From Sphyrna mokarran (lineage: Eukaryota), in NCBI GenBank assembly GCA_024679065.1, contig JAGIQG010000009.1, forward strand, positions 85,746,001-85,810,000: a DNA stretch of 64,000 bases, written 5' to 3'. The translations under genes and the position numbers were made by a program. This document shows, piece by piece, positions 1,561 to 56,489 of this stretch. Below the pieces are notes generated by a model. It had not been told where the DNA came from, made no database searches, and saw only the letters and a program-made list of their open reading frames with translations. Numbering within the stretch: the first letter of the stretch is position 1; each line of letters starts with the position of its first letter.

Positions 1561-1959
1561 AAGAGTATATGGAATGAGTATATGGAAAACAATAGGATAG
1601 GGGGTTATAGATAGGTCTGTGGATTGGTAGATGTGATCAGCGCAACTCTTGGGCCGAAGGGCCTATTTGTGCTGTATTGTTCTATGTGCTGCTGAGGTGG
1701 TGACTAGGAGGATTTCACAGTATTTTTATTACAATATTAATGTAAGCCTTACTTGTGACTAATAAATTTATTCCCAATTTATTCTGGATCTTCCAATCCC
1801 CTTTCACCCCAGATTCCCCAACCTCTTTTTATTCTGGATTCTACCCCACTCCTCCTTTAGTCCAGATCCCCATCACTGCCCCTTTACCGCTTTGTCACTC
1901 CCCTTTTGTTCTGGATTTCATTTCATTCCCTATTCTCCATTACGCCCAGATACTAACCC

Positions 1960-3325
1960 AAAGAACAATACAGCACAGGAAATAGGCCCTTCGGCTCTCC
2001 AAGCCTGCACCGCTCCTGCTTCCAGCTAGACTATTCATTTGTATCCCTCCATTCCCAGTCTGTTCATGTGGCTATCCAGATAAGTCTAAAACAATCCCAG
2101 CGTGATCGCCTCTACCACCTTGCTTGGCAGTGCATTCCAGGTCCCCACCACCTTCTGTGTAAAATACGTCCCTCTGTGTTAAACCTTGCCCCGCTTATCT
2201 TGAACCTGTGACCCCTTGTGTTCGTCACCTCCGATCTGAGAAAAAGTTTCCCACTGTTCACCCTATCTATGCCCTTCATAATTTTATACACCTCTATAAG
2301 GTCGCCTCTCATCCTCCATCTTTCCAGGGAGAACAACCCCAGTTTACCCAACCTCTCCTCATAGCTAAGACCCTCTATACCAGGCAACATCCTAGTAAAC
2401 CTTCCCTGTATTCTCTCCAAAGCCTTCCATGTCTTTCTGGTAACATGGCGACTAGAACTGGACGCAGTATTCCAAATTTGGCCTAACCAACGTTCTGTAT
2501 AGCTCCAACATCATACTCCAACTTTTATACTCTATGCCCTGTCCTATAAAGGCAAACATGCCATATGCCTCCTTTACCACCTTCTTCACCTGGATTGCCA
2601 ACTTTAAGGATCTGTGAACTTGCACATCCACGTCCCCCTGTATCTATATTCCTGATGGTTCTGCCATTTATTATGTAGCTCCCCTTTGCATTAGTTCTAC
2701 CAAAATGCATCAATTCGCATTTATCTGGATTAAATTCCATCTGCCACTTCACTGCCCAATTTTCCAGCCTATCTATATCCTGCTATATTCTCCGATAATG
2801 TTCATCGCTATCTGCAAATCCAGCCATCTTTGTGTCATCTGCAACCTTACTGATCACACTAGTTACATCTTCTTCCAAATCATTTATATATATTACAAAT
2901 ATCAGAGGTCCCAATACAGAGCCCTGCGGAATTCCACTAGTCACAGACCTCCAGCCGGAAAAAGACCCTTCCACTGTTACCCTCTGTCTTCTATGGCCAA
3001 ACTTGTTCTCTACCCATCTAGCTAGCTCTCCTTTTATCCCGTGAGATTTAACTTTTTGCACTAACCTGTCATGAAGGACTTTGTCAAACGCTTTACTAAA
3101 ATCCATATAGGTGACATCCACAGCCCTTCCCACATCAATTTTTCTTGTCACCTCCTCAAAAAAATTCAACCAAATTTGCAAGGCATGACCTCCCTCTTAC
3201 AAAACCATACTGTCTATCACTAATGAGATTATTCCGTTCTAAATGTATATACATCTAAGAATCCTCTCCAACAATTTCCTTACCAAGGACATCAAGCTCA
3301 CCGGCCTATAATTACCTGGGTTATC
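1960..3325 (-). mobile_element. Older CR1 3' fragment (distinct family)
   Basis: RT fragments in ORFs 2112-2420, 2525-2752 and 2783-3181; CR1-type 3' end. Confidence 0.85.
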
Positions 3326-5100
3326 AAAGAACAAAGAACAAAACAGCACAGGAAATAGGTCCTTCGGCCCAACGAGCCTGCGCCGCCACCCTGATGTTCC
3401 CACCTCTACCCGCGATCTCTGGCCTTGTTTATAGATGTATGGATTAAAAAACCAAATTTGAGACAATTTAGGGAGAATTTGTTTTGCCAATTAGCCTAAG
3501 AGCATATCTTTGGGATGTGGGAGGAAACCGGAGCGCCCGGAGAAAACCTACGCAAACACAGGGAGAATGCGCAAACTCCCACAGACACAGGCCCAAATCC
3601 ATGTATCTGCACAGCACAGCAATAGTCACTGAGCTGTCACGTTGCCCATCAAATGGTCCAGGTCAAGCATACACTAATGATGTGAAGCACTAGGATACTC
3701 TCGAAAAAGATCCAAGAGCAGCCCTCTCACGATCCATCGCGTGTATGCCCCTCGTTAGACAACAAGGTGGACCAAAGCACCTGTAGGATAAAAACAAGTA
3801 CATCAATATCATCATCTATTTACATCAGGGACTCCCAAGGCTCATGACCTTATTTTGTATCAGTTTTCTATACCCCTCCATTCCCATTCTGTTCGTGTGC
3901 CCATCTAAGTATTTCTTAAATAACTCCAGAGTACCTGCCTCCACCACTTTACTTGGCAGCGCATTCCATACCCCCACCATCCTCTGTGTGAAAAAACTCC
4001 CTCTAGCATCCAAATTACACCTTACCCCCCACACCCTAAGCCCGTGATCCCTCGTGCTATTTGAGTCCTTTGTACCCTTCTTAAATAATGGGACCACATT
4101 TGCTATCCTCCAATCCTCTGGGACTTCACCTGTGTCCACTGAAGAGACAAAGATTTCTGTTAGAGGCCCAGCAATTTCACCTCTTGTCTCCCTTAGCAGT
4201 CTAGGATAGATGCCATTAGGCCCTAGGGATTTGTCTGTCTTAATGTTCCCTACAAAACCTAACACTTCCTTCCTTGTAATTGAGATTTTCCCTCACGGGT
4301 CAACATACCCTTCTGAGACACTTCCAGTCAACACGTCCCTCCCCTTTGTGAATACTGATGCAAAGTGTTCGTTTAGGATCTCTCCTACCTCCTTCAGCTC
4401 TAAGCATAATTCCGCTCCTTTGTCCCCGAGAGGTCCGATTTTTTTCCCTGACAACTCTCTTGCTCCTAATGTATGAATAAAATGCCTTAGGATTCTCCTT
4501 AATCCTGTCTGCCAAGGACATTTCATGGCCCCTTTTTGCTTTTCTAACTCCCCTTTGAGTTCTTTCCTTCTTTCCCTGTATTCTTCCAGTGCTCCATTTG
4601 TTTTTAGCTGCCTGGAACTAACGTTTGTCTTTCCTTTCTTTTTGATCAGATCCTCAATTTCCCTTGTTATCCATGGCTCTCAAATCCTACCTTTCCTATC
4701 CTTCCCTTTTACAGGTACGTGCCCGTCCTGCAGTTCTATCAACTGCTCCTCAAAAGACTCCCACGTGCCAGATGTGGATTAACCCTCGACCAGCCTCTCC
4801 CAATCAACAGCCACCATTTCCTGCCTAATTTGGCTATAGTTAGCCTTTTCCCAATTCAGCACCTTACCGCACGACAACACTCATCTTTTTCCATTACTAT
4901 CCTAAGTTTACAGAATTGTGATCACTATTTGCCGTATGTTCTCCTACTAAAACTTTAACGACCTGACCGGGCTCATTCCCCACTACAAGGTCCAGTATTG
5001 CACCTCCCCCACCCCTACCCCAAGTTGGGGTATCAACGGGGATACGTTGGGGATATCAACGTATTGTTCCAAAAAATTTTCCTGTACACATTTTATAAAT
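3326..5100 (-). mobile_element. CR1 with long V-SINE-containing 3' UTR (family B) joined to internal ORF2 fragments
   Basis: AAAGAAC tail; V-domain at about 3500-3600; ORF2 fragments 3825-4265 and 4300-4521. Confidence 0.8.
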
Positions 5101-13078: not shown

Positions 13079-14262
13079 TGTTACTTTAATTTGCAGGAGA
13101 GAAAAAAAACTTCACACACACTTTTATTATTAGGTTAGAGGAGGGGGGAGGGTGGGATACTCTACCTGTGTAGAGTATCGGGTTACCTCTCTGGACCAAT
13201 TTATAGAGTCAGAGAGAAAAACTACAACTACCGGCAGCCCCTAGTGACGACTTCCGGTTACAAGTTAGTTTAAATAAAAAAAAACGGCAAAAACTACTCC
13301 CGCTCGCTGTTTTAAACAAAGAGAAAAGTTAAAAAGCTACTTAACAATCGAACTTCTCGCTCTCCCAAATCGCTGCCTCTCCGTGCTGCTCCAATGGAAC
13401 AATGAGGAGAGATTTGGCAAATTGGGACTGTTTTCCTGAGAAAAACATAGACGTAGAGGAGATCTGATAGAGGTGTACAAGATTTTGAAGGGGATTGTTA
13501 GAGTAAACAGGGTTAAGCTTTTTCCTAGGATGGACTCAAATAGCACAAGGGGTCACGGGCTTAGGGTGAGGGGGGGTAAGGTGTAATTTGGATGCTAGAG
13601 GGAGTTTTTTCACACAGAGGGTGGTGGGGGTATGGAATGCGCTGCCAAGTAAAGTGGTGGAGGCAGGTACTCTGGAGTTATTTAAGAAATACTTAGATGG
13701 GCACATGAACAGAATGGGAATGGAGGGGTATAGAAAACTGATTTAAAATAGGGATCATGAGCCTTGGGAGTCCCTGGGAAGTGTGTAAATAGATGATGAT
13801 ATTTGATGTTACTTGTTTGGTCCGCCTTGTTGTCTAACGAGGGGCATACACGCAATGGGTTGTGGAGGACTGCTCTTGGATCTTTTTCGAGAGTATCCTA
13901 GTGCTTCACGTCGTTAGTGTACACTTGACCTGGACCATTTGATGGGCAACACAACAGCTCAGTGACTATCGCTGTGCTGTGCAGATACATGGATTTGGGC
14001 CTGTGTCTGTGGGAGTTTGCGCATTCTCCCCGTGCTTGCATGGTTTTTCTCCAGGTGCTCCGGTTTCCTCCCACATCCCAAAGATGTGCTCTTAGGCTAA
14101 TTGGCAAAACAAATTCTCCCTAAATTGTCTCAAATTTGGTTTTTAATCCATACATCTATCAACATGGACAGGGATCGTGGGTAGAGGTGGGAACATCGGG
14201 GTGGCGGTGTGGGCTCGTTGGGCCGAAGGGCCTGTTTCCCGTGCTGTTTTGTTCTTTGTTCA

Positions 14263-17035: not shown

Positions 17036-20000
17036 ATATGTATTGTGGTCACCGTTCTCCTGAAGGTTGGGTATTTTGCTGCGAACAATGGTCTGTTTGA
17101 GGTTGCGCAGTTGTCTGAAGGCAAGAAGTAGAGGGGGGGGGTGGGGGGGGTGCGCGGTGGATGGCTCTGGCGAGATGTTCATCATCATCAATGATGTGTT
17201 GAAGACTCCGGAAAAGATGTCATAGCTTCTCCGCTCCGGGGAAGTACTGGACCACAAAGGGTATCTGTCCACATGTCTCGTGTTCATCTTCTGAGGAGAT
17301 CAGTGTGGTTTATCGCTGTGGCACGCCGGAACTATCGATCGATGAGTCGAGCGCTATATCCTGTTCTCATGAGGGCATCTTTCAGCGTCAGGAGGTGTCT
17401 GTCGCGATCCTCCTCATCTGAGCAAATTCTATGTATACGGAGGGCTTGTTTAACGTGTTTCGGGTGGAAGCTGGAGAAGTGGAGCATTGTGAATTTGTCT
17501 GCCGGCTTGCGGTACAGTGAGGTGCTGAAGTGACCATCCTTGATGGAGATGCGTGTATCCAATAATACAACCAATTCTGAGGAATAGTTCATGGTGAGTC
17601 TGATAGTGGGATGGAACTTGTTGATATCATCATATAGTTGTTTCAATGATTGTTCACCATGAGTCCAAAGGAAAAAAATGACACCAATTATCCAGTGTAT
17701 AGCATTGGTTGAAGGTCCTGTGCAGTGAAGAAGTCTTGTTCGAACCTGTGCATGAAGATGTTGGCATATTGAGATGCGAATTTGGTCCCCATGGCTATTC
17801 CGTGTATCTGGACATTGTGGTCCAGGATAAAGGGATGAGCTGTAAAATTGCATCTGGAAACTGGCAGTTGTTGGCATTGACTACTGAGGCAGTTGCAGCA
17901 ATGCGATCGTCATGGGGGATGTTGGTGTAGAGTGCCGAGACATCCATTGTGACAAGGAGTATCCCTGGTTCAACTGCTCCATGGGTGCTGAGTTTCCGTA
18001 GGAAGTCCGTAGTGTCACAACCAAATTCGCACCTCAATATGCCAACATCTTCATGCATAGGTTCAAACAAGATTTCTTCACCGCATGGGATCTTCAACCG
18101 AGGCTATAAACTAGATACATTGATGACATTTTTTTCCTTTGGACTCATGGTGAACAATCATTGAAACAACAATATGATGACATCGACAAGCTCTATCCCA
18201 CCATCAGACTCACCATGGACTATTCTCCGGAATCGGTTGCATTCTTCGACACACGCATCTCCATTAAGGACGGTCACCTCAGCACCTCACTGTACAGCAA
18301 GCCAACAGACAACCTCACAATGCTCCACTTCTCCAGCTTCCACCCTAGACACGTTAAAGAGGCCATCCCCTATGGACAAGCCCTCCGTATGCACAGAATT
18401 TGCTTAGATGAGGAGGATCGCGACAGACACCTCCAGATGCTGAAAGATGCCCTCATGAGAACAGGATATGGCACTCGACTCATCAATTAACAGTTCTGAC
18501 GTGCCACAGCGATAAACCGCACTGAACTCCTCAGAAGACGAACACGGGACATGATGGACAGAGTACCCTTTGTGGTCCAGTACTTCCCCCTGAGGTGACC
18601 ATCCTTGATGGAGTTGCGTGTATCCAATAATACAACCAATTCTGGAGAATAGTTCGTGGTGAGTCTGATAGTGGGATGGAACTTGTTGATATCATCATAT
18701 AGTTGTTTCAATGATTGTTCACCATGAGTCCAAAGGAAAAAAAAATGACACCAATGTATCCAGTATATAGCATTGGTTGAAGGTCCTGTGCAGTGAAGAA
18801 ATCTTGTTTGAACCTGTGCATGAAGATGTTGGCATATTGAGATGCGAATTTGGTCCCCATGGCTGTTCCGTGTGTCTGGACATTGTGGTCAAGGATAAAG
18901 GGATGAGCTGTAAAATTGCATCTGGAAACTGGCAGTTGTTAGCATTGAGTACTGAGGCAGTTGCAGCAATGTGATTGTCATGGGGAATGTTGGTGTAGAG
19001 TGCCGAGACATCCATTGTGACAAGGAGTATCCCTGGTTCAACTGGAGCGGAGAAGCTACGACATCTTCTCTTGGAGTCTTCAACACATCATTGATGATGA
19101 TGAACATTTCGCCAGGTCCATCCCCACACCCCCACTTCTTGCTTTCAGATAACCGCGCAACCTCAAACAGATCATTGTTCACAGCAAACGACCAACCTTC
19201 AGGAGAACAGTGACCACAATACCACACAACCCTGCCACAGCAACCTCTGCAAAACATGCCGGATCATCGACATGGATAACATCATCAAACGTGAGAATAC
19301 CATTCACCAAGTACACGGTACATACTCTTGCAACTCGGCCAACATTGTCTACCTAATACATTGCAAGAAAGGATGTCCCGAAGCATGACACATTGGGGAG
19401 ACCATGCAGACACTACGACAGCGGATGAATGAGCATCGCTCGACAATCACCAGGCAAAATTGTTCCCTTCCTGTTGGCGAGCATTTCAACGGTCACGGGC
19501 ATTTGGCCTCCGACCTTCAGGTAAACGATCTCCAAGGGGGCCTTCACGACACACGACAGTGCAGAGTCGCTGAGCAGAGACTGATAGTCAAGTTTTGCAC
19601 ACATGAGGATAAGTGTATGCTTAAATTGGACCATCTGATGGGCAACATGACAGCTCAGAGACTATCGCTGTTGCTGTGCAGACGCATGGATTTGGGTCTG
19701 TGTCTGCGGGAGTTTGCGCGTTCTCCCCGTGGTTGCGTGGGTTTTCTCCGGGTGCTCCGGTTTCCTCCCACATCCCAAAAATGTGCTCTTAGGCTGATTG
19801 GGCAACAAATTTTCCCTATATTGGTCCCTAATTGTCATTAAGACGTTAGGACGGCGGCGTGGGCTCATTGGGCCGAAGGGCCTGTTTCCCGTGCTGTGTT
19901 GCTCTTTGTTCTTTGTTCTTTGTTCTTGTCTTAACAGGGGCCTTGGCTTCATGTCACACTATCTGTAACCCCCATGACTTGCCTGGGTTAGCAAAAAACC

Positions 20001-22029: not shown

Positions 22030-25000
22030 CCAGTGACACCTGGGAAGGTTTTTTTTCCCACACGCTTTAAGAAATGATGCTCCTTTGTCAGGTGTGTGGA
22101 AGGTTCTGATCAGAGAAAGGCTTATAAAGACACACACAGTTTACAGAATACTGATTAGAATGCACGTCTTTACAACTAACCTGCTATTCAAGTCTTAAAG
22201 ATGCAGACAATGTGAGTGGAGATAGCATTAGCTTAGGTTAAAGAGATGTGTATTGTTTCCAGACAGGACAGTAAGTGAGATTTTACAAGCCTAGGGAAGT
22301 CATGGGAGTTACAGATAGTGCGACATGAACCCCAGATCCCAGTTGAGGCCGTCCTCATGTGTGTGGAACTTGATTATCAGTCTCTGCTCAGCGACTCTGC
22401 GCTGTCGTGTGTCGTGAAGGCCACCCTGAAGAACGCGTACTCGAAGTCAGAGATCAAATGCGCGTGACCGCTGAAGTGTTCGTCAACAGGAAGGGAACAG
22501 TCTTGCCTGATGATTATCGAGCAATGTTCATTCATCCGTTGTCATACCGTCTGCATGGTCTCCCCAATGTACCATGCTTCAGGACTTCCTTTCCTGCAGT
22601 GTATTATGTAGACAATATTACCCAAGTTGCAAGAGTATGTGCCGTGTACCTGGTGGATGGTGTTCTCACGTGAGATGATGTCATCCATATCGATGATCCG
22701 GCATGTCTTGTAGAGGTTCCTGTAGCAGGGTTGTGTGGTATTGTGGTCACCATTCTCCTGAAGGCTGGGTAGTTTGCTGCAAGCAACGGTCTGTTTGAGG
22801 TTGTGCGTTTGTTTGAAGGCAAGAAGTGGAGGTGTGGGAATGGCCCTGGCGAGATGTTCATCTTCATCAATAATGTGTTGAAGGCGCTGGAGAAGATGTC
22901 ATAACTTCTCCACTCTGGGGAAGTACTGGATGTCCATCGTGTCCCATGTTTGTCTTCTGAGGAGGTCGATGCAGTTTCTCGCTGTGGCACGTCGGAACTG
23001 TCGATCGATGAGTTGAGTGCCATATCTTGTCCTTATGAGGGTATCTTTCAGCATTTGGATCCTCCTCATCTAAGCACATTCTGTGTATATGGAGGGCTTG
23101 TCCGTAGGGGATGGCTGCTTTAACGAGTTTAGGGTGGAAGCTGGAGAAGTGGAGCATCATGAGGTTATCTGTGGGCTTGTGGTACAGTGAGGTGCTGAGG
23201 TGACCGTCCTTGATTTTTTTTTAGAGCAACACAGCACGGGAAACAGGCCCTTCGGCCCAACGAGCCTGCGCCATCGTCATAACTATATAGTAACAGTTCC
23301 ATTATCCTATCCTAATTTTAGGTTATTCCTAATATAGAAGAGTCTAAATGTAGGGACAATTTGTTTCCCAATCAGCCTAAGAGCAAATTTTTGGGATGTG
23401 GGAGGAAACCGGAGCGCCCGGAGAAAACCCACGCAACCACGGGGAGAACGCGCAAACACCCGCAGACACCGGCCCAATTCCAAGTGCCTGCACAGCTACA
23501 GCGATAGTCACTGAGCTGTCATGGTGCCCTTCAGATGGTCCAGATAAAGCACTCATTTACGACATGAAGCACCAGGCAACCCATGAATCAACATCCAAGA
23601 GCTGTCCTCGCACCACCTGCCGAATGCATGCTCCTTGTTGGTCAAGTATGGACCGAATTACCTGTGGAAAAAAAAGCCATAGTTAAACAGTCCTACTATA
23701 TCCCTCTATCTGCATACCGCTCATGTGGCTGTCCAAGAGACCCTTAAACAGCCCCAGCGTGCCTGCTCCCACCACCTTACTCGGCAGTGCATTCCACACC
23801 CCCACTACCCTTTGTGTGAAAAACTGCCCTCTAATATTCGTCTTATACATAGCCCCCCTCACCCTAAGGCCATGACCCCTCGTCCTATCCATTTCTGAAG
23901 GTGGAAAAAGTTTACCTCCATTTACTCTATCTATACCCCTTATAATCTTATACACCTCTATGAGATCCCCTCTAAGCCGACGTCTTTCAAGGGAAAACAA
24001 CCCCAGTCTATTTAATCATTCCTCATAAGACAGTCCTTCCATACCAGGCAGCATCCTGGTAAACCTCCTCTGCACTCTCTCCAAGGACTCCACATCCTTC
24101 CGATAGTACGGCGACCAGAACTGGACGCAGTATTCCAAGTGAGGCCTAACCAACGTTCTATACAACTGCAACATCAAACTCCTACTCTTGTATTCTATAC
24201 CCTTTTCTATGAAAGCTAACATACTATACGCCTTCTTTATCACCTTCTCCACCTGTGAGGACACCTTCAGAGACTTGTGAACCTGCACTCCCAAGTCTCT
24301 CTGCGTCTCTATGCTCTGTATAGTTTTACCTTTTATCCTATAACTCTCTTCTACATTTTTCCGGCCAAAATGCATCACCTCGCATTTATCCAGATTAAAT
24401 TCCATTTGCCATCTATCTGCCCAGTCTACCAACCTACCTATGTCCTGTTGTATTGCCTGACACTGCTCCTCTGTACCCGCCAATCCAAGCATCTTGGTGT
24501 CATCAGCAAATTTGCTGATCTCACCACCTACCCCAACTTCCAAGTCGTTTATGTAGACCACAAATAGAAGAGGACCTAGTACTGAGCCTTGTGGCACTCC
24601 ACTAGTGACAGGCTTCCAGCCGGAAAAAGAGCCTTCCACTACTACCCTCTGTCTCCTCCTCCCGAGCCAGTTCTCGACCCATCTACATACCTGACCCTGT
24701 ATCCCATGCGCCTTCACCTTCTCTATCAGTCTACCATGAGGAACCTTGTCAAACGCCTTACTGAAATCCATGTAGACGACATCAACAGCATGTCCTTCAT
24801 CAACTGTTTTTGTCACTTCTTCAAAAAATTCCACTAGATTTGTAAGACAAGACTTCCCCTTGACGAAGCCATGCTGCGTATCCCTGATCAGATCGCAGCG
24901 CTCCAGATGCTCATACATCCTGTCCCTAAGGATCCTCTCCATTAGCTTACCTATAACTGAAGTCAAGCTCACCGGCCTATAGTTCCCTGGGTGATCCCTC

Positions 25001-25232
25001 TGACCTTTTTTAAACAACGGTACTACGTTTGCTATCCTCCAGTCCTCTGGGACCTCACCTGTGTCCAAGGAAGAGACAAAGATTTGCGTCAGAGGCCCAG
25101 CATGGAGATGCTTGACTCCAAGAATGCAACCGATTTCAGAGAATAGTCCATGGTGAGCCTGATGGTGTGGTGGAACTTGTTGATGTCATTATGTAATGGT
25201 TTCAGTGTTTGTTCCCCATGAGTCCAAAGGAA
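22030..25232 (-). mobile_element. Penelope-like element (about 22030-23215 and 25102-25232) interrupted by a CR1
   Basis: MLHFSSFHPKLVKAAIPYGQAL and a GIY-YIG region homologous to 19040-19610. Confidence 0.85.
23224..25101 (-). mobile_element. CR1 family C, 5'-truncated, with V-SINE-containing 3' UTR
   Basis: RT ORF 24016-25068 (FADD) and 23683-24000; V-domain at about 23385-23470. Confidence 0.9.
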
Positions 25233-26185
25233 GTTTTAAGTTGCTAGATCTGTTCAAAATCCATCCTAGTTAGAGGTCTTTGCAAGGTTGACAGGACTGG
25301 GTGTGCTGTTGTGGTTTCTGGTCAAAGGTGAATGCTGGGTGGTATATCCAATTGTATCTCTTATCAATCTTTCTGCATGAGTTCAACACAACTGAATGGC
25401 TTGCCATCCATTTCAGAGGGCAGTTAAGAAGTAACAGCATTGCAGTGAGTCTTGTGTAAACCAGACCAGATAAGAAGGACAGATTTACTTTTCTAAAGGA
25501 TATTAGTGAATCAAATTGATTTTTAAAACAACAATTGATAGTTTAACGGTCACTATTTAATCCCAACAAATTGGATGATTTTAAATTTCACCAGCTAATA
25601 TGGATTAAACGTTTGTCCCCGGACCATTTAACTGGACCCCTGGATTACAACCCCAGTGACATTGCCACAATGCCACTCTCACTGTGTGGGGTCTCCTTTT
25701 CTTCTCTGCATCTGATCACAGCCTCAGTCCCCTGTACAGTTGGTGTGTGTGTGTGGGTGTGATGCCGTCTGTTAGTAAGATTCTTGACACAGGGATCTCT
25801 AGCGATGCCGTCTGTTAGTAAGATTCTTGACACAGGGATCTCTAGCACCAAAGCAAGAGTATTAGGTTCCCTGTGAAAACCTTCATTCCTTCTATCTGCA
25901 AAATTAATTTCCAAATTAGCATGAATGAAAATTATGTACTTATAATAGAGCATTCTTAATTATTATTAATTAATATTCACATGAATATTAAGATACTAAC
26001 TGCGCAGTCTCATTGTTCTACATTGTCACAAATACCAGAGGAAATGCAGGTTATACAAAGAACAGAGAAAATTACAGCACAGGATCAGGCCATTCAGTCC
26101 TCCAAGCCTGCACTGACTTAACTGAAACCTCTTAACTATGACTTAACTAAAAACTAAACCCTTCCGGGGACCATATCTCTCTCAT

Positions 26186-26938
26186 TTGGAATACTGCGTC
26201 CAGTTCTGGTCACCCTCCTACTGGAAGGACGTGGAGACTCTAGAGAGTGTGCAGAGGAGGTTTACCAGGATGCTGCCGGGTATGGAAGGTCTGAGTTACG
26301 AGGAGAGGTTAGGCAAATTGGGGCTGTTTTCCTTAGAAAGATGTAGACTTAGAGGAGATCTAATAGAGGTGTACAAGATTATGAGGGGTATAGATAAACA
26401 GGGTAAAGCTCTATCCTAGGATGGACTCAAATAGCACGAGGGATCACGGGCTTAGGGTGAGGGGGTAAGGTATAATTTGGATGCTAGAGGGAGTTTTTTC
26501 ACACGGAGGGTGGTGGGGGTATGGAATGTGCTGCCAAGTAAAGTGGTGGAGGCGGGCACTCTGGAGTTATTTAAGAAATACTTAGATGAGCACATGAACA
26601 GAATGGGAATGGAGGGGTATAGAAAACTGATTTAAAATAGAGATCATGAGCCTTGGGAGTCCCTGGGAAGTGTGTAAATAGATGATGATATTGATGTACT
26701 TGTTTTTATCCTACAGGTGCTTTGGTCCACCTTGTTGTCTAACGAGGGGCATACACGCGATGGGTCGTGAGAGGGCTGCTCTTGGATCTTTTTTGAGAGT
26801 ATCCTAGTGCTTCACGTCGTTAGTGTACGTTTGACCTGGACCATTTGATGGGCAACACGACAGCTCAGTGACTATCGCTGTGCTGTGCAGATACATGGAT
26901 TTGGGCCTGTGTCTGTGGCAGTTTGCGCATTCTCCCCG
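26186..26938 (+). mobile_element. CR1 family B 3' portion, broken inside its V-domain
   Basis: ORF 26186-26419 and a 3' UTR near-identical to 13740-14030. Confidence 0.88.
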
Positions 26939-29890
26939 TTCGGGGGGGGTGGGGTCCTAAGTAGTTGGGGTGCTAAGAGGGATGAGAGTAAGGGGGTCAT
27001 AGAGGAAAGCTGTAAAACACAGCAGCGTACGGGTGGGGCAGGACATGGTTTGAAATGCGTATACTTTAATGCAAGGAGTATTCGCAATAAGGGGGAGGAA
27101 CTTGCAGCTTGGACCATTACCTGGAACTTCGATGTTGTGGCCATTTCAGAGACTTGGGTAGAGCAGGGACAAGAATGGATGTTGCAGGTTCAAATGCTTT
27201 AGTCGGAGTAGAGAAGGAGTTGGAAGGGGGGGAGGAGTGGCATTATTAGTCAAAGACTGTATCACAGTGACAGAGAAGAAGTTTGATGAGGACTTGTCTG
27301 TTGAGGTAGTATGGGCTGAGATTAGAAACAGGAAAGGAGAGGTCACCCTGTTGGGAGTCTTTTATAGACCTCCTAAAAGTTCTAGAGAGGTAGAGGAAAG
27401 GATTGCAAAGTCAATTCTGGTCAGGAGTGAAAGTAATAGGGTAATTGTTATGGGGGACTTTAACTTTACTAATATTGATTGGAATAGCTATAGCTCTAGC
27501 TCGTTAGAGGGGTCAGTTTTCGTACAAAGTGTGCAGGAAGGTTTTTTGACTCAGTATGTAGATAGGCCAACTAGAGGTGAGGCTACATTGGATTTGGTGC
27601 TGGGCAATGAGCCAGACCAGGTGTTAGGCTTGGAAGTTAGTGAACATTTTGGTGATAATGACCACAATTCGGTTACGTTCACCTTAGTGATGGATAGGGA
27701 TAGGCATGAAGCTGGGGGCAGTAGTTATAGCTGGGGGAAGGGTAATTATGAGGCCATCAGGAGAGAATTAGGGTGCATAGATTGGACTAGGAAACTACAG
27801 GGACTGGGAACATCTGGAATGTGGAGCTTATTCAAGGAGCAGCTGCTGCGAGTCCTTGATAAGTATGTCCCTGTCAGGCAAGGAGGAAATGGTCGAGTAA
27901 GAGAACCTTGGTGTACGAAAAAAGTTGATTTTCTGGTTAAAAGGAAAAAGGAGGCTTATGTCAGGATGAGGCTTGAAGGCTCGGTTAGTGCAATGGATAG
28001 CTATAGATTAGCCAGGAGGGAGCTAAAGAGTGAATTGAGGAGAGCTAAGAGGGGACACGAGAAGACTTTGGCTGATAGGATTAAGGAGAATCCTAAAGCT
28101 TTCTTTAGATATGTTAAGAATAGAAGATTGGTTAGGGCAAGATTAGGGCCAGTCATAGACAGCAGTGGGAAGTTGTGCGTGGAGCCTGAAGAGATTGGAG
28201 AGGCACTGAATAAATATTTCTCTTCGGTATTCACGCGGGTGATGTAAATGTAGTTATGGAGAACACTGAGGTACAGGGTAGCAAACTGGAAAGTGTTGAA
28301 GTAGATAGGGAGGATGTGCTAGATATTCTCGAGGGTTTGAAGTTGGATAAGTCCCCTGGCCCGGACGGGATTTACCCTAGGATTCTCTGGGAGGCAAGAG
28401 AGGAGATTGCAGAGCCTCTGGCTCTGATCTTCAGGTCGTCGTTGGTTACGGGTGTGGTTCCGGAGGACTGGAGGATAGCGAATGTGGTCCCGTTGTTTAA
28501 GAAGGGGAAGAGAGACCTTCCAGGGAATTAGAGGCCAGTGAGTCTTACTTCTGTTGTGGGCAAAGTATTGGAGAGAATAATTAGGGATAGGATTTATAGT
28601 TATTTAGAGAGAAATGAATTGATTGGAGATAGTCAGCATGGTTTTGTGAAGGTAGGTCGTGCCTTACTAACCTCATTGAGTTTTTTGAAAAAGTGACTAA
28701 AGAGGTGGATGGGGGTAAGGCGGTTGATGTGGTATATTTGGACTTTAGTAAGGCGTTTGATAAGGTGGCCCATGGAAGACTTCTGCAGAAAATGCAGATG
28801 TATGGGATAGAGGGTGATTTAGCTAATTGGTTAGGAATTGGCTAGCAGATAGAAGACAGAGGGTGGTGGTTGATGGGAGATATTCATCGTGGAGTTCGGT
28901 GACAAGTGGTGGACCTCAGGGGTCTGTTTTGGGGCCCCTGCTGTTTGTAATTTTTATAAATGATCTGGATGAGGGTATTGAAGGATGGATTATTAAATTT
29001 GCAGATGACACTAAAGTTGGTGGAGTGGTAGATAGTGAAGAGGGGTGTTATAGTTTGCAGAGGGACTTGGACAAGTTGCAGAGCTGGGCCGAGAGGTGGC
29101 AAATGGAGTTTAATGTGGAAAAGTGTGAGGTAATGCACTATGGCAAAAATAATAAATGTGTAGAGTATAGGGCAAATGGTAGGATTCTTAGTAGTCTAGA
29201 TGAACAGAGGGATCTTGGTGTGTATGTGCATATATCCCTGAAAGTAGGCAGTCAGGTCGAGAAGGTTGTTAGGAAGGCATATGGAGTCTTGGCTTTTATT
29301 GGTAGAGGGATTGAATTTCGGAGCCGCAACGTCATGTTGCAAGTGTACAAAACTCTAGTGCGGCCGCACTTGGAGTATTGTGTGCAGTTCTGGTCTCCAC
29401 ATTATAAGAAAGATGTGGAGGCATTGGAGAGGGTACAGAGGAGGTTTACCAGGATGTTGCCTGGTATGGAGGGCAGGTCTTATGAAGAGAGGCTGAGGAT
29501 TTGAGGTTGTTTTCGTTAGAAAGGAGGCGGCTAAGAGGGGACCTAATCGAAACATATAAGATGATTAGAGGTTTAGATAGGGTGGACAGTGATAGCCTTT
29601 TTCTAGGATGGAGAAAGCTAGCACGAGGGGACACAGCTTTAAATTAAGGGGTGATAGTTATAGGACGGATATCAGAGGCAGGTTCTTTACCCAAAGGGTG
29701 GTTCGGGAGTGGAATGCCCTGCTGCAGCAGTTGTAGATGCGCCAAGTTTGGTGGCGTTTAAGAGGTTAGTTGATAAGTATATGGAAGAGAAGGGAATGGT
29801 TTAGTTTGGAGGGGCATTGCTTTTTATATTGGTCGGCGCAACATTGAAGGCCGAAGGGCCTGTTCTGTGCTGTAATGTTCTATGTTCTAT
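26939..29890 (+). mobile_element. CR1 family A, ORF2-only copy with frameshifts and stops
   Basis: ORFs 27237-28247, 28256-28531 and 28827-29504; ATGTTCT tail at about 29890. Confidence 0.93.
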
Positions 29891-31239: not shown

Positions 31240-31740
31240 ATGAACAAAAAACAAAGAACAAAACAGCATGGGAAACAGGCCCCTCGGCCCAACGAGCCCG
31301 CACCACCACATCGATGTTCTCATGTCCACCCATGATCCCTGTCATCCCTGTCTATGTTTATAGATCTATGCATTAGAACCAAATTTGAGACAATTTAGGG
31401 AGAATTTGTTTTGCCAATTAGCCTAAGAGCATATCTTTGGGACATGGGAGGAAACCGGAGCACCCAGAGAAAACCCACGCAAGCACGGGGAGAATGCGCA
31501 AACTCCCACAGACACAGGCCCAAATCCATGTATCTGCACAGCACAGTGATAGTCACTGAGCTGTCGTGTTGCCCATCAACTGGTCCAGGTCAAGCGTACA
31601 CTAACAATGTGAAGCACTAGGATAATCTTGAAAAATCCAAGAATAGCCCTCTCATGACCCATCGCGTGTATGCCCCTTGTTAGACAACAAGGTGGACCAA
31701 AGCACCTGTAGAATAAAAACAAGTACATTAATATCATCGA
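31240..31740 (-). mobile_element. Family B CR1 3' UTR fragment (V-SINE-containing)
   Basis: Homologous to 3326-3815. Confidence 0.85.
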
Positions 31741-39158: not shown

Positions 39159-40193
39159 CTGTAAAACAAGGAATTCTCAGTGAGCAGAGAACAACATTCA
39201 GAGAGGAGACACAATCATTTTCTCTCTCCCAGCCAGGATCACACACAAAGGAAGATAAATACATTATAATGGGAGGAGACTATTCAGGGTCATAGAAGTG
39301 GTTTTGACATTCAATGAGATCATAGCTAATCTACAATCTGACTCCCAGCCAGTGAAAGCAGTGTCTTCCCATATATTCTCATTACCTTAAATTTCATTAG
39401 ATCATTTCTCAGCTTCCAAGATTGAAGAGAATACATTCCTAACTTTTTAAAAAATCTCTCACCTTTTCAGCCAAGCTACACTCCTCTGAAGGCAAATATC
39501 TTCTTCCTATAGTGTTAAGCCCAAAGCTGCTCCCAGTATTTCAGGTGTGGTCAAACCAGAACTTCTCGAAGAAGTGTCTTCCCCACTACCAAAATTACCT
39601 CTTCTCCCCCACCCTGATTCTTCCCTCCAAATAGAAAAGCAGTAATATTTTTGACTAATAATTTTTTTCTGAACCTGTAACCAGCGAGATGAATAACAGG
39701 AATCTAGTAGGTTTTGTAGATCTGGACTTCCAGGAGGCATTTGATAAGATACCACACGAAAGGTTAATACACAAGGTTTGGTCACATGGGATTAGGAGTA
39801 ATTTGTCATCTTGGATAGAAGATTGGCTAACAAAAGGAAAGCAGAGAGGGTAAATTAGTCATGTGGTTGGCATGATGTTTATACTGGGGTGCATAGGGTT
39901 CGGTGCTCAGGGGTCAACTACTTACAATCTACATTAATAATGACTTGAATACAGGGATAGAAGGTACCATAGCCAAATTGGTAGATGATAGATACCAAAA
40001 TAGGTGGGATGGTAAGTTGCGATAACAAAATAAGAAATTTACAAATGATCACCCAAGGCTAGAATTGAACACAGCTCCCTGGCACTATGAAGCAGCAGTG
40101 CTTGCCACAGTGCTGCCCACAGGAATCTGGGTCTCAACTGTTCACAGTAACCTTGATAATTGTCGCTGCAACAAAGATGAGTGTCATTGGAGA

Positions 40194-41950
40194 CAAAGAA
40201 CAAAACAGCTTGGGAAACAGGCCCTTCGGCCCAACGAGACCACGCCGCCACCCCGATGTTCCCACCTCTATCCGTGATCCCTGTCTGTTTATAGATCTAT
40301 GGATTAAAAACCAAATTTGAGACAATTTAGGGAGAATTTGTTTTGCCAATTAGCCTAAGAGCACATCTTTGGGATGTGGGAGGAAACCGGAGAAAACCCA
40401 CGCAAGCACAGGGAGAATACGCAAACTCCCACAGACACAGGCCCAAATCCATGTATCTGCACAGTACAGCAATAGTCACTGAGCTGTCATGTTGCCCATC
40501 AAATGGTCCAGGTCAAATATACACCAACTACGTAAATCACTAGGAGACTCAAAAAAAAAACTCCAAGAGCAGCCCCCTCACGACCCATCGCTTGTACGCC
40601 CCTTGTTAGACAACAAGGTGGACCAAAGCACCTGTAGGATAAAAACAAGCACATCAATATCATTGTCTATTTACACACTTCCCAGGAACTCCCAAGGCTC
40701 ATGATCCCTATTTTAAATCAGTTTTCTATACTCCTCCGTTCCCATTCTGTTCATGTGCCCATCTGGGTATTTCTTAAATAACTCCAGAGTGCCTACCTCC
40801 ACCACTTTACTTGGCAGCACATTCCCCACCCTCTGAAAAAACTCCCTCTAGCATCCAAATTATACCTTACCCCCCTCACCCTAAGCCCGTGACCCCTCGT
40901 GCTGAGACCATCCTAGGAAAAAGCTTAGCCCTGTTTACTCTGTCTATATCCCTCAATCTTGTATACCTCTATAGATCTCCAAGTCTATGTCTTTCTAAGG
41001 AAAACAGTCCCAATTTGCCTAACCTCTCCTCGTAACTCAGACCTTCCATACCAGGCAGCATCCTGGTAAACCTCCTCTGCACTCTCTCCAGAATCTCCAC
41101 GTCCTTCCGGTAGTAAGGCGACCAGAACTGGACGCAGTATTCCAAATGAAGTCTAACCAACGTTTTGTACAACTGCAACATTAAAGGCCAGCTCTTGTAC
41201 TCTATACCCCTTCCTATAAAGGCTAGCATACTATATGCTTTCTTCAACCTTCTCCACCTGCTCTGCCACCTTCAGAGACTTGTTCACCTACACCACCAGG
41301 TCCCTCTGCGTTTCTATACTCTTAATAGGTCTACCCTTTATCATATTTCTCCCAAAATGCATCACCTCACATTTATCAGGATTGAATTCCATCTGCCATC
41401 TGTCTGCCCAAGCTACTCACCCATGTCCTGCTGCATTGCCTGACAATGCTCCTCACTATCTGCAAGTCCAGCCATCTTTGTACCATCTGCAAACTTACTG
41501 ATCACTCCACTTACTCCCTCTTCCAAGTCATTTATGTATATTACAAAGAGGTCCTAATACCAAGCCCTGCGGCACACCACTGGTGACCGACCTCCAGTTA
41601 AAAAAACCCTTCCACTATTACTGTCTCCTATTACCAAGCCAGTTACTTATCCATCTAGCTACCTGTCCTTGTATCCCATGAGCCTTGACCTTCTCAACTA
41701 ACCTCCCACGAGGGACTTTATCAAACGCCTTACTGAAATCCATATAGACGAAGGGCGAGCCGTTGATGTCAACCATTTGTCACCTCCTCAAAAAATGCTA
41801 CCAAATTTGCAACGCACGACCTCCCCTTAACAAATCCATGCTGTGTATCCCTAATCAGATTGCAACGCTCTAAGTGCCTATACATCCTAAGAATTCCCTC
41901 CAACAGCTTCCCTACCACTGATGTCAAACTCACCAGCCTATAATTTCCAT
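40194..41950 (-). mobile_element. CR1 family B with V-SINE-containing 3' UTR, in class I intron 5
   Basis: RT remnants in ORF 40969-41247; 3' UTR homologous to 13740-14262. Confidence 0.88.
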
Positions 41951-46446: not shown

Positions 46447-48312
46447 AACCCCACCGACACAACACACAGGGCCCCCTACAAATAAACCCCACCGACACAA
46501 CACACAGGGCCCCCTGCAAATAAACCCCACCGACACAACACACAGGGCCCCCTGCAAATAAACCCCACCGACACAACACACAGGGCCCCCTGCAATAAAC
46601 CCCACCGACACAACACACAGGGCCCCCTACAAATAACCCCACCGACACAACACACAGGGCCCCCTGCAAATAAACCCCACCGACACAACACACAGGGCCC
46701 CCTGCAAATAAACCCCACCGACACAACACACAGGGCCCCCTGCAAATAAACCCCACCGACACAACACACAGGGCCCCCTGCAAATAAACCCCACCGACAC
46801 AACACACAGGGCCCCTGACAAATAAACCCCACCGACACAACACACAGGGCCCCCTACAAATAAACCCCACCGACACAACACACAGGGCCCCCTGCAAATA
46901 AACCCCACCGACACAACACACAGGGCCCCCTGCAAATAAACCCCACCGACACAACACACAGGGCCCCCTACAAATAAACCCCACCGACACAACACACAGG
47001 GCCCCCTACAAATAAACCCCACCGACACAACACACAGGGCCCCCTACAAATAAACCCCACCGACACAACACACAGGGCCCCCTACAAATAAACCCCACCG
47101 ACACAACACACAGGGCCCCCTGCAAATAAACCCCACCGACACAACACACAGGGCCCCCTGCAAATAAACCCCACCGACACAACACACAGGGCCCCCTGCA
47201 AATAAACCCCACCGACACAACACACAGGGCCCCCTGCAAATAAACCCCACCGACACAACACACAGGGCCCCCTGCAAATAAACCCCACCGACACAACACA
47301 CAGGGCCCCCTACAAATAAACCCCACCGACACAACACACAGGGCCCCCTACAAATAAACCCCACCGACACAACACACAGGGCCCCCTACAAATAAACCCC
47401 ACCGACACAACACACAGGGCCCCCTACAAATAAACCCCACCGACACAACACACAGGGCCCCCTACAAATAAACCCCACCGACACAACACACAGGGCCCCC
47501 TGCAAATAAACCCCACCGACACAACACACAGGGCCCCCTACAAATAAACCCCACCGACACAACACACAGGGCCCCCTACAAATAAACCCCACCGACACAA
47601 CACACAGGGCCCCCTGCAAATAAACCCCACCGACACAACACACAGGGCCCCCTGCAAATAAACCCCACCGACACAACACACAGGGCCCCCTTACAATAAA
47701 CCCACCGACACAACACACAGGGCCCCCTGCAAATAACCCCACCGACACAACACACAAGAAATAAACACACACAACAGGGCCCCCTACAAATAAACCCCAC
47801 CGACACAACACACAGGGCCCCTGCAAATAAACCCCACCGACACAACACACAGGGCCCCCTAGCAAATAAACCCCACCGACACAACACACAGCCCCCTACA
47901 AATAAACCCCACCGACACAACACACAGGGCCCCCTGCAAATAAACCCCACCGACACAACACACAGGGCCCCCTACAAATAAACCCCACCGACACAACACA
48001 CAGGGCCCCCTACAAATAAACCCCACCGACACAACACACAGGGCCCCCTACAAATAAACCCCACCGACACAACACACAGGGCCCCCTACAAATAAACCCC
48101 ACCGACACAACACACAGGGCCCCCTGCAAATAAACCCCACCGACACAACACACAGGGCCCCCTGCAAATAAACCCCACCGACACAACACACAGGGCCCCC
48201 TACAAATAAACCCCACCGACACAACACACAGGGCCCCCTGCAAATAAACCCCACCGACACAACACACAGGGCCCCCTGCAAATAAACCCCACCGACACAA
48301 CACACAGGGCCC
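46447..48312. repeat. 38-bp minisatellite, about 49 copies, in class I intron 1
   Basis: Unit AAATAAACCCCACCGACACAACACACAGGGCCCCCT(G/A)C. Confidence 0.97.
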
Positions 48313-50019
48313 ATGTAGATAATGTTCAATCACACTGAGCACCATCAGGCTGTTATTTTTTGTAACAGTATACCGTTTATATTTAACCCCCTGTTGTCAA
48401 TGGAAACTCCTTTCTCCCATTCTCTCTTTCAGCTTCTGTTGCATCTCATTGGCCAGATCCTAATAGTTCTAATATCTACAGAGTTCCAATGAGTTTTTCA
48501 CTTTTTATGCATATTCATGTTTCCAACAATTCCAAATTACTTCTCCAAAATGTCATTCTCCTGAAGCTTTCCCTGCTTTTCTCCAAAAGGACACCTTACC
48601 TCACCAAAAGGATGCCCCTTGGCATCCGTCCCAAGAATTCTGTCTATTTAAGAATTTATCCTGAGAGCCCTATAGCCCACATGTCATGTTTTAGACATTC
48701 CACTGACAATTGGATTTGTTTGAAAGTTGTTGTATTTTTACAGGTGCACTGTCTCTTTGAAGCACAGGTGTGCAAAGACAACACAACTCCATTCCTGCGC
48801 CAAAAATGGTGGGTGCCGGTTTCAGGGGCTGGATTCTGAAATTGGGTTTCCTAAGCCGGGATCCTCTCTGTATTTCTGAGAATTGGATCCTTAGTGTCAT
48901 AGTTGCCCCAGAGATGAGATTCGGACACTAAAACTGCTGAGCTCCCCTCTAATGTCAGCTGATCTCAGCTGTTCTTCTGCTGAAATCCTCGCTCATACCT
49001 TCCCCACCATTAGACTTGACAGTTCAACACTCTCCTCGCTGATCTCCCACACTCTACCTCTGGAAACTTGAGACAATCCAAAACTCTGCCACCAACATTT
49101 TAACTCATGGCAAATCTCCTTTCCCCTATCACTTCCTGTGCTTACTGACTGGCTCACAATCATGCGACAGCCCCATGTTAAAATTCTCATCTTGTTTTCA
49201 AATCCCTCCATGGCCTTGCCCCTTCCTATAACTTCCTCCACCCACACAACCCTCTGAGATCTCTGAACTCCTTTAATTCTGGCCTCTTGAACATCCTGAT
49301 TTGATTTCTTCACTATTGCTGTCTGCGTCTTCAACTGGTATAACCTCAAGATCTCAAATAACTTCCATCAACCTCCTCCCCCCCACATCTCACTTCCCCC
49401 CTTCTACAATCTTCCCCCTCTCTATCTCACTTTCTCCTCCTGAGCATTTTGAGCAGGTCACTAACACAGAATATTAAGGATTGTCTATGGGTTTATTCCA
49501 TAGATTTCCAGGAGGTTTTCCATAAGGTTTCACACGAAAGACTGTTATTAAAAATGAGAGTGAATAGGAATGGATATGGATGGGGTCTTTTGACTTGGGC
49601 TAGGAATAGTTTTGGGAGGTCGGAGGCAGGGATTGGGGTTAATCGGTAAGTAATCTGATTAGTGGGATCTGTACTGGGGCCATAACTGTTCATCACATTT
49701 ATAAATGTATCAGTGAAGGAAAGTTGTGTATCAAAGTTATAAATGTTCAGATGGTCAATAAGTTGCATCGAAGGGAACAGAAAGTTCTAAAGGGATATTA
49801 ACAGATACTGTGAGTGGGTGAAACTACAACAGATTGAGTTTAATGTGGGATAGCCAGATCATCCACTGTGGAACTAAAACAAACAAATTTCTGGCATGGT
49901 CTATAAAATCTATGGAAAAGAATCCCAGAAAAGAGGGCATTTGGTCCTTTGGAGAATCAGCGCAGACCCAAAAAAGCAGCAATGTACCCTGGCTTTCCTC
50001 CTTGCCCTATCTCTGTAAC

Positions 50020-50196
50020 CCTGCATTTTTACCATAGCTAATTCACCTGACCTGCACATCTTTGGATTGTGGGAGGAAACCAGAGGACCCGGGAATACGT
50101 GCAAATTCCAACATAGTCACCTAAAACCAGAATTGAACCAGGGTCCCTCACACTATGAGGCAGCAATGCTAACCACAGTGCCACTGTGCTGCCCCA
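50020..50196 (-). mobile_element. tRNA-derived V-SINE (HE1-like), degraded
   Basis: A-box TGGCACTGTGG, B-box GGTTCAATTC, then V-domain GGTTTCCTCCCACAATCCAAAGATGTGCAGGT. Confidence 0.8.
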
Positions 50197-51329
50197 GTCA
50201 GAAATTGGGAATTGTGGATGAGTCAAAAGATTTAGGGATTCAAAACCAAAAATATATTGACAGATAGAAACATTAAAGAATGCTGTTCTTGATCTCAAGG
50301 GCTGGAATATTGAGGGTCAGAAGTTATGTTCCAGCTGTACAGAATCTGTTTTATTCCCATCTGGAGAAATGTGTTCAGTTTTCGGCACTGTATATCTGTC
50401 AGGATATATTAGTCTTGGAGGGAGTGCAGTGAAGTTTCAGCAGAATATTCCTGGGGTTAAAGGAGTTAAATTAAAAGGACACGTTACACAGACTGAGCTT
50501 GCATTTTGTTGACTCAGAAGATTAAGTGATGATCTAATAGAAATGTTTAAAATGTTAAATGTTGGTCTCAGCAACTCCAATTTTAATCGCTCTGCCATTG
50601 TTCACCAGTTCTTCAGCTGCTTGAGCCCAAACCGTCTGGAATTCCCTCCTTAAATCTCTCCCCCTCTCTGCCTCAGACAATCCTTAACTGCTACCTCTGA
50701 CCAAATACTTGTTATTCTGGCCTAATATCTCCTGATACAACTCACTGTCACAGCTTGTATTAGAAAGTTCCTGTGAATCCCCACAGGACGTTTTATTATG
50801 TTAAAGGGGCTACATAAATACAAGTTGTTGTTTTAATCTTTACCTGTTTACAATTTTTTTTATTGACAGAGACAAACACAAACCTTGTAACCCAACAAAC
50901 AGAGTGTGAATTTACCCTGATTAATAGGATTATAATGAATTCCTGATTAATCTCAGTGCCTGAGCACAATTAAACACTCAATTAATTTACAATGGACAGA
51001 AAGGGCTTAGAGACAGAGAAAGGGCTCCCTCTGGTGGGAGGAACATGAACAAGAGACATCATCTCAAACATAAACCTTGGCCATTCAGGAGGGAAATCAG
51101 AAAACAGTTTTTCACATAAAAGGTGGTGTAAATCCAGAATATTCTCTTTGTAAAACTATGGATTTTTGAGGTTAATTAAAGCTTTCAAATTGAGAAAGAC
51201 TTTTATAAAACAAAATACTGAATAAGTTGGAAATTTGAATTTAAAACAAAAAAAATGCTGGAAATACTCCACTCAGTTTTTTTATAGAGTGAGAAACAGA
51301 GAATGTTTCAGCTTGATGATCTTTGGTCA

Positions 51330-52595
51330 GAATCATAGAATCCTTACAATTCGGCCCATCGAGTCTGCACTAATCACAAAACCACCCAGGCCCTATCCCC
51401 ATAACCCCATGCATTTATCCTAGCTAGTCCCCCTGATACTAAGGGGTAGTTTAGCACGGCCAGTCCCCCTAATCCACACAGCTTTGGAGTGTAGGGGGAA
51501 ACTGAAGCACCAGAGGAAACCCATGCAGACACGGGGAGAATGTGCAAACTCCACACAGACCGTGACCCAAACCAGGAATTGAACATAGAACATAGAACAA
51601 TACAGCACAAACAGGTCCTTCGGCCCACGAGTTGCGCCGATCACATCTACCAATCCATAGACCTATCTATAACCCCCTATCCTATTCGTTTCCATATACT
51701 CATCCAGAAGTCTTTTAAAAGACCCCAATGAGTTTGCCTCAACAACCTCCGACGGCAGCCGATTCCATTCACTCACCACCCTCTGAGTGAAAAACCTACC
51801 CCTGACATCTCCTTTGTATTTGCTTCCCTGCACCTTAAATCTGTGTCCTCTGTAGTGACCATTTCAGCTCGGGAAATAGTCTCTGAGAGTCCACCCTATC
51901 TATTCCTCTCAATATTTTATAAACCTCTATCAGGTCGCCTCTCAACCTACGTCTCTCCAGTGAGAAGAGTCCGCTCCCTCAACCTATCTTCATAAGGCCT
52001 GCCTCCCAATCCAGGCAGCATCCTTGTAAATCTCCTCTGCACTCTTTCAATAGCCTCTACATCATTCCTATACTGAGGTGACCAGAACTGCGCACAATAT
52101 CCAAGTGGGGTCTGACAAGAGTCTTATAGAGCTGCATCATTACCTCCTGACTCCTAAACTCTATTTCTCGATTAATCAATTCCAGTACACCATACGCCTT
52201 CTTGACCACTTCCTCCACCTGCGATGCCGATTTGAGAGTCCTATGGACCCGGACCCCGAGATCCTTCTGCTCTACAACACAGCTAAGACTCCTACCCCTT
52301 ATATTGTACTCCTTCAACCCATTATTCCTGCCAAAATGGACCACTACACATTTATCCACGTTGAAGTCCATCTGCCACTTCTCCGCCCAGTCTTGCATCC
52401 TGTCTATGTCCCACTGCAACTTTTGGCATCCCTCCAGACCATCCACAACACCACCGACCTTTGTATCGTCGGCAAACTTACTAACCCATCCCTCCACTTC
52501 CTCATCCAGGTCATTTATGAAAATAAATAATTGAATGCGGGTCCCTTACGCTGTGAGGCAGCAGTGCTAATCTCTGTGCCACCGTGCCACCCCTG
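51330..52595 (-). mobile_element. V-SINE (head about 52530-52595, body about 51330-51580) split by a CR1 family D 3' fragment (about 51584-52528)
   Basis: SINE head and V-domain flank CR1 RT ORF 52057-52497; AATTGAA duplicated at 51577-51583 and 52529-52535. Confidence 0.85.
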
Positions 52596-56390: not shown

Positions 56391-56489
56391 GATCAGAGAG
56401 TGGGAGCAGTGAGTGACACCAACAACATATAAGTAAATTGTTAGACTTTGACAACAGGGTCAGAGCAAAAAAACCACTGAGAGATCTCA

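Follow-up and report, generated by a model that had tools for sequence, protein, structure and literature searches.

A V-SINE segment carried and conserved in the 3' UTR of CR1-like LINE families of Sphyrna mokarran

Results

A SINE-derived cassette between ORF2 and the LINE tail

The window (the whole 64,000-nt stretch of Sphyrna mokarran DNA analysed here, from an assembly of 2.77 Gb) is dense with CR1-type LINEs and a tRNA-headed SINE. We take these repeats to be the CR1 and the HE1 V-SINE of sharks and rays, and a segment of about 85 nt to be the V-domain; the CR1 clade is likewise presumed from the ORF2 C-terminus and the tail. ORF2 encodes a reverse transcriptase (Pfam RVT_1 in a longer family C copy, E = 9.5e-34) and an APE endonuclease (Pfam Exo_endo_phos in a family E copy). 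The ORF1 translation shows CxxC...CxxC and esterase-like motifs, presumably a zinc finger and an esterase-like domain, and a 255-aa piece of it had no Pfam match. The LINEs described below have the CR1 trait of a 3' hairpin followed by a short tandem repeat tail, with variable 5' truncation. The window also contains two long tandem arrays that give long open frames, at 46447-48315 (units of about 38-76 nt) and 56485-60624 (units of 30-60 nt).

An insert of about 350-550 nt, hereafter the cassette, lies between the ORF2 stop codon and the terminal hairpin of these LINEs. It comprises, in order, a splice acceptor, a folded block, a tRNA head without B-box, a V-domain and about 30 nt of further SINE sequence, so that the captured part corresponds to the front two-thirds of a V-SINE minus the B-box. 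The original prediction had placed such a chimera at 13740..14262, and the ORF2 stop, the head and the V-domain were found where it put them (Table 1). That description lacked two parts upstream of the head, the splice acceptor and a folded block of 134 nt. The hairpin and tail after the V-domain, which it regarded as the usual ones, are of LINE type and unlike those of the free SINE. Compared with a regular V-SINE, the cassette has a V-domain of about 80 nt (82-89% identity to the abundant free SINE), a homologous tRNA head in which the A and B boxes are not both intact owing to the deleted B-box, and no independent copies starting at the head: cassette heads are accompanied by an upstream block or a 5' truncation.

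Table 1 Features of the focal copy and of related copies in the window.
Feature	Position	Strand
CR1 ORF2 3' end in a 5'-truncated family B copy; TAA stop codon at 13744-13746	13402..13746	+
Family-specific stretch preceding the acceptor; acceptor lost here through an 18-nt deletion at about 13815	13747..13815	+
Folded block, 134 nt if intact; predicted three-way junction, side hairpin and long stem	13816..13943	+
V-SINE tRNA-head remnant; A-box-like part retained, B-box deleted (18 nt), predicted refold into two hairpins	13944..14004	+
V-domain, 82-89% identity to the genome's free V-SINE; sequence conserved, without a structure signal	14005..14089	+
Post-V stretch, SINE-derived, 64-69% identity to free SINE; conserved between families	14090..14121	+
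Variable spacer, mostly unalignable across families, no significant SINE homology	14122..14202	+
Terminal hairpin and short repeat tail of the LINE itself	14203..14260	+
Intact polypyrimidine-CAG splice acceptor inside family B copy 26182-26939	26697..26716	+
Family B copy, full cassette	3329..4068	-
Family B copy, full cassette	40193..41948	-
Family B copy, 5'-truncated within the UTR	31245..31738	-
Family C copy, young (98.7% to consensus UTR), full cassette	23223..25102	-
Family D copy, 5'-truncated within the folded block	19610..19911	+
Sister CR1 family, short UTR, like hairpin and tail, no cassette; represents the pre-capture state	1959..3325	-
Free decayed V-SINE (HE1-like), comparison sequence; 3' limit approximate	49985..50195	-

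The recurrence of the chimera in the window held up, with six further copies present. However, the copy at 19610-19911 had been assigned to family C and belongs to family D (96% identity to D, 78% to C), and of the two chimeras reported at 26640 and 31240, the first is cut inside the V-domain (it ends at 26939, where a second CR1 starts) and the second is 5'-truncated in the UTR. The free SINE used for comparison does start at 50195, on the minus strand.

Carrier families and their abundance

When the assembly was searched with the UTR, all of the best 40 of 2865 candidates, the ones that were scored, spanned nearly the whole UTR, and the 39 besides the focal copy showed 90-93% identity. At least five carrier families (B-F) were found, with at least 40 matches for each in its own search. 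The family consensuses, each built from 18-30 top-scoring copies, may carry a bias at CpG sites. Fetched copies matched the consensus UTR of their family with a median identity of 99.1% for C, 98.7% for E, 98.3% for D, 95.8% for B, and 93.2% for F. Full-length family E elements measure about 4.7 kb, with a 5' end that was defined in most of 20 copies. At most of the other CR1 ends sampled, among the matches listed, no more than about 65 nt separate the hairpin from the projected ORF2 end.

A UTR-block profile gave 21 matches in a 1-Mb sample (100 pieces of 10 kb each, taken from large contigs at round coordinates without formal randomisation), one of which was a free SINE head and two of which were halves of one copy. 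The density of about 19 carrier copies per Mb extrapolates to about 50,000 copies genome-wide. Part of a family D stretch was also contained in 19 of 21 listed sequencing runs. Of four runs compared in detail, three, each under its own organism label, yielded contigs that span at least 80% of the head and block (28-30 of 30 bins), and the fourth gave none; the cassette is therefore not limited to this assembly.

Several features of single families were seen as well. Among the 20 fetched family D copies (L191-L210), 12 share a 1-nt deletion near the ORF2 end, so a family D subfamily with an altered C-terminus was amplified. Family C ends in poly(A) and its relatives in a short T-rich repeat (L101-L130; window 23215-23225). 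In an E-like family, some full-length copies (L335, L337-L339, L348) begin with at least two tandem 5' UTR monomers of 200 nt, resembling the promoter monomers of rodent L1.

A single capture from SINE to LINE

We compared majority sequences derived from 27 copies of the free SINE and 30 of family B. The head remnant is 58-63% identical to the free-SINE head, with one 18-nt gap across the B-box, and its score was reached by 1-4 of 2000 dinucleotide shuffles. For the post-V stretch no shuffle out of 1000 reached the score, and the spacer showed no homology to the free SINE (148-924 of 1000 shuffles reached its score). The head had been described as having no recognisable B-box, and this can be ascribed to one 18-nt deletion common to the five families. 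Judging by these comparisons, a SINE is the only possible source of the head remnant.

Phylogenetic analysis of ORF2 (1188 columns, 24 of 52 rows after near-identical copies were dropped) placed the six carrier rows in one clade with support of 100/99, sister to the short-UTR family at 1959-3325; an earlier tree on 270 columns was unresolved. Nesting of the sister family inside the carriers was rejected (p-AU = 0.00014), and the carrier clade is itself nested among short-UTR CR1s, so that the sequence passed from SINE to LINE, a single time. The heritable chimera postulated by the original prediction is thus one capture inherited by five families rather than a set of separate insertions with different LINE/SINE junctions, and the direction that it proposed agrees with both the nesting of the clade and the tRNA-head remnant.

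What did not hold is that the LINE adopted the SINE body as its 3' end. The tails of carriers are 92-98% alike between families and only 65-71% identical to the free SINE tail, so they do not show a tail shared with the SINE as in HER1, and the sister family has the same type of terminal hairpin and repeat tail. The capture was therefore an insertion between stop codon and hairpin rather than a tail swap. SINE-like tails do occur in other sampled CR1 copies (e.g., L190 and L173).

No free SINE with a cassette-type V-domain was seen in the 1-Mb sample, so that either its donor family has died out or is rare, or the changes took place along the stem lineage. A look-alike of the chimera occurs at 51320-51810 in the window, where a short-UTR CR1 lies directly 5' of a headless V-SINE. 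This was rejected as a chimera, being an insertion into the SINE head whose near-identical copies (L072 and L073) represent local duplication.

A conserved splice acceptor and rare spliced copies

At the start of the block, a polypyrimidine tract (9-11 of 12 positions) followed by CAG/G is present in all five families, and the acceptor has been kept even though the preceding sequence and the exact bases of the tract vary. We searched for spliced copies with a pattern that excluded the normal upstream T-tract. It returned 48 matches, 30 with loci and 18 judged from their letters alone, and the located ones include antisense SINE tails, unrelated matches, six C-subfamily copies and 5' truncations. 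In one of the 48 (L317), the first approximately 45 nt of the element are joined to the acceptor exactly at G/GTGAG ... CAG/G. This copy has what is expected of a spliced retrocopy, namely a junction that falls exactly on the parental GT donor and AG acceptor; it has a 2-nt microhomology there and no clean target duplication. The element has 572 GG sites with this microhomology, and 9 of them are canonical donors. In families B and F, one of 48 matches (L351) is a candidate with a 10-nt match to the homologous donor at the junction, a donor known in family B from a single 5' end.

Further spliced copies were scarce. The best 40 of 353 candidates in a search with the L317 junction contained no second full-junction copy. 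The first donor is weak in some subfamilies. The 5' UTR (L271-L290) has a TATA-like box about 190 nt inside the 5' end and then a second consensus donor, a strong one about 70 nt before the ORF1 ATG, for which no spliced genomic copy was found. Two other internal deletions ending at the acceptor lack a GT and were joined through microhomology. Among the ends listed for assembled contigs, presumed to be RNA, from runs of the three organism labels, none was a joint at the acceptor; five contigs have one loose end there, of median 10 letters and too short to call. In internally deleted family E copies (L309 and L298), ORF1 or ORF2 is joined to the cassette via short microhomology. Copies of an F-related subfamily (L354 and L355) have GG in place of the acceptor AG, or a shifted AG, and may be carriers with a lost acceptor.

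Counted by hand, 37-41 of 48 rows start at the acceptor, whereas 11-13 of 38 do so at a single control site (binomial p = 2e-4 for 41 versus 13). The two motifs are about equally frequent per Mb (4 for the acceptor and 5 for the control). The approximately threefold excess was obtained against this one control site and need not be general. Among 23 acceptor-start copies examined, four had continuous flanks and several had short duplications; the readable flanks are insertion borders, and capture of a host exon was rejected for these copies. A purine-rich upstream sequence considered as a shared donor exon was also dismissed, as the rows with loci are antisense tails of free SINEs, and an excess of TG before the junction is about at genomic background.

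Taken together, the acceptor seems to be usable, and its spliced copies are rare and have not been amplified. These data bear on whether the cassette could serve as a selected terminal exon. It is unlikely in our estimation that the LINE encodes its own SINE-like RNA in this way, a short structured V RNA that tunes its parent; such an RNA might be made by splicing out both ORFs or by 5' trimming to the folded block, and its V-domain would then be a host-factor site common to SINE and LINE RNA. A version in which both ORFs are removed as one intron, or host exons join the cassette, and the short RNA regulates or competes with the LINE appears rather unlikely. The acceptor retained in five families despite varying letters, the exact L317 junction together with the L351 match, and the excess of copies starting at the acceptor are what one would expect of an exon, but they stand against the rarity of spliced copies, the GT-less deletions, the weak first donor, the insertion borders at acceptor-start copies and the missing joint in putative RNA contigs. 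Furthermore, spliced copies of human L1 are dead ends, according to the available text of PMC5860796.

Constraint across carrier families

The degree of change in the cassette was compared with that at fourfold degenerate sites of the adjoining gene. Between families B and E, 53 of 128 fourfold sites differ, against 4 of 61 sites in the head (Fisher p = 1.9e-7), 5 of 85 in the V-domain (1.5e-9), 4 of 32 in the post-V stretch (1.4e-3), 27 of 133 in the folded block (1.7e-4) and 3 of 51 in the tail (6.4e-7). The direction was the same in all five family pairs tested, and 24 of 25 segment tests gave p<0.05 against fourfold sites; the set consists of five families only, two of them close. Identity between B/F and C/D/E was 64-71% at third codon positions, 89-95% in the head, 87-95% in the V-domain, 85-100% in the post-V stretch, 71-88% in the block and 30-62% in the spacer, and spacer identity between families was in the range of 0.30-0.62 with the exception of the D-E pair.

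The proposal that the V-domain was kept across the divergence of the families is thus borne out in that it is far more conserved than silent sites and than the flanking spacer, the comparison in which equal divergence would have spoken against it. However, the V-domain is not singled out, because the head remnant, the post-V stretch and the folded block are constrained too. A coding role of the cassette was rejected, because every frame contains stops and indels between the families break the frame.

Conversion by free SINEs was considered as well. The 1-Mb sample contained 181 V matches, of which 18 have a cassette head and all 18 of these a cassette-type V; 127 combine a free-SINE head with a SINE-type V, none being cassette-type, and 36 are without a recognisable head. 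No cassette-type V thus goes with a free-SINE head in this sample, and ongoing conversion by the free SINE does not account for the conservation.

Predicted RNA structure of the cassette

The consensus of the folded block has a predicted fold of -49.6 versus -26.6 for column shuffles (0 of 200 reaching it), with an SCI of 0.94, and single copies give z scores from -2.2 to -4.0. For block, head and V start together, 95.8% of cells are paired in ten real copies under a structure derived from the same sequences on which it was scored. The same ten copies contain 12 cells with a two-sided change (0 of 500 shuffles), and the 5 pairs with a two-sided change are not above shuffles (100 of 500). Head and V start are predicted to form two new hairpins (z = -3.8), and the V-domain with the post-V stretch gave no fold signal (z = -0.4). 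No Rfam model matched the cassette up to E = 5. HDV-like and hammerhead ribozymes were rejected by eye since no matching pairing or core was seen.

The pattern of constraint and pairing also makes it improbable that the cassette is a neutral passenger, i.e., that a SINE-bearing stretch entered one master element and owes its apparent conservation to template-switch exchange between carriers. Conserved and variable stretches alternate inside 500 nt, paired sites of the block change while keeping their pairs, and most diagnostic sites, as judged by eye, agree with the ORF2 tree. A single such site, located in the head, contradicts that tree, however, and V-type domains are proposed recombination hot spots in the available text of PMC5804259. 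There is also a precedent in MER6, which carried a V-SINE with no function shown in the part of PMC6887750 consulted.

Selection at the DNA or host level, on an enhancer or chromatin site or on a small-RNA target that tempers the element for host tolerance, would fit a V-domain conserved in sequence without a fold signal and the fish V-SINEs reported as miRNA targets (PMC5499810, in a passage citing Scarpato 2015), but is quite improbable, as the adjoining block and head carry RNA pairing signals and conservation between master elements requires a benefit to the element itself.

Discussion

Since the cassette has changed far less than the silent sites of the gene beside it, a job at the RNA level is likely, and we infer such a function for the captured insert from sequence comparison. 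On balance, the insert probably functions as a cis-acting RNA module that raises the yield of retrotransposing LINE RNA and is maintained through selection acting on master elements. Under this module reading, a host or SINE-bearing RNA would have been captured by template switching, possibly as a terminal exon in which an old V-SINE was already present, and loss of the B-box would have stopped Pol III from producing a competing short RNA. The V-domain may act as a sequence-specific binding site for a host factor, as in SINE RNA, which would be conserved in sequence and not in fold, while the folded block and the refolded head might protect or position it. The LINE RNA could thereby be more stable, or be exported or packaged better, and the usable acceptor would give spliced copies as rare by-products. 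A point against the module is that abundant short-UTR CR1 families thrive without the cassette.

The finding bears on why SINE core domains remain conserved over hundreds of millions of years. Because constraint persists in the LINE after loss of the B-box, the V-domain is here separated from SINE transcription and from tail exchange between SINE and LINE. The young family C (99% to its consensus) and the cassette-less sister family make a direct deletion or swap assay of the V-domain feasible. Furthermore, about one tenth of the V-domains of this genome have been spread by a LINE, and many of the approximately 50,000 copies bring a splice acceptor into host DNA.

HE1 is classed as a V-SINE (PMC4824008) and is paired in a table of PMC3747384 with HER1, its CR1-type partner in sharks and rays. 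The free SINE of that system has a tRNA head, a V-domain of about 85 nt and a CR1-type hairpin tail, and the cassette has a homologous head, V-domain and post-V stretch. The known flow, however, is of a LINE tail to a SINE, whereas here the head and body of a SINE, without B-box, lie within an autonomous LINE that keeps its own tail. A full-text literature search returned no title or start of an abstract describing such a capture, and Repbase or Dfam may hold an uncommented consensus.

Related chimeras differ in carrier or direction. In the available text of PMC6887750, the MITE MER6/MER6A captured an Ac1-like V-SINE and amplified it as part of itself; MER6 is a DNA transposon, non-autonomous and lacking an RNA step, for which no constraint is shown there, whereas the cassette has an autonomous retrotransposon as its carrier and its constraint was measured over five families. 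LINE-derived SINE bodies (Kojima 2018, PMC5786205) likewise involve middle sequence shared by LINE and SINE. In the portion of that paper available, the flow is mostly from a LINE 5' UTR to a SINE (RTE, Vingi), recombination of Ceph-SINE with the 5' UTR of Ingi-3_AC is suggested as a possibility, and no V-domain in a CR1 3' UTR is reported. SpIREs resemble L317 in that LINE RNA was spliced before insertion, but as described in PMC5860796 (partial text) their splicing stays inside the 5' UTR or reaches into ORF1; in L317 both ORFs are gone. Alu/L1 chimeras also join SINE and LINE in one insertion; those in the accessible part of bioRxiv 2025.02.02.635956 are single insertions with a 3' L1 segment and not a lineage with a SINE in its 3' UTR. 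According to a passage of a 2016 paper, such domains are not found in LINEs. Capture of a SINE is already known, and what is new is that it occurred in a carrier class stated not to have it.
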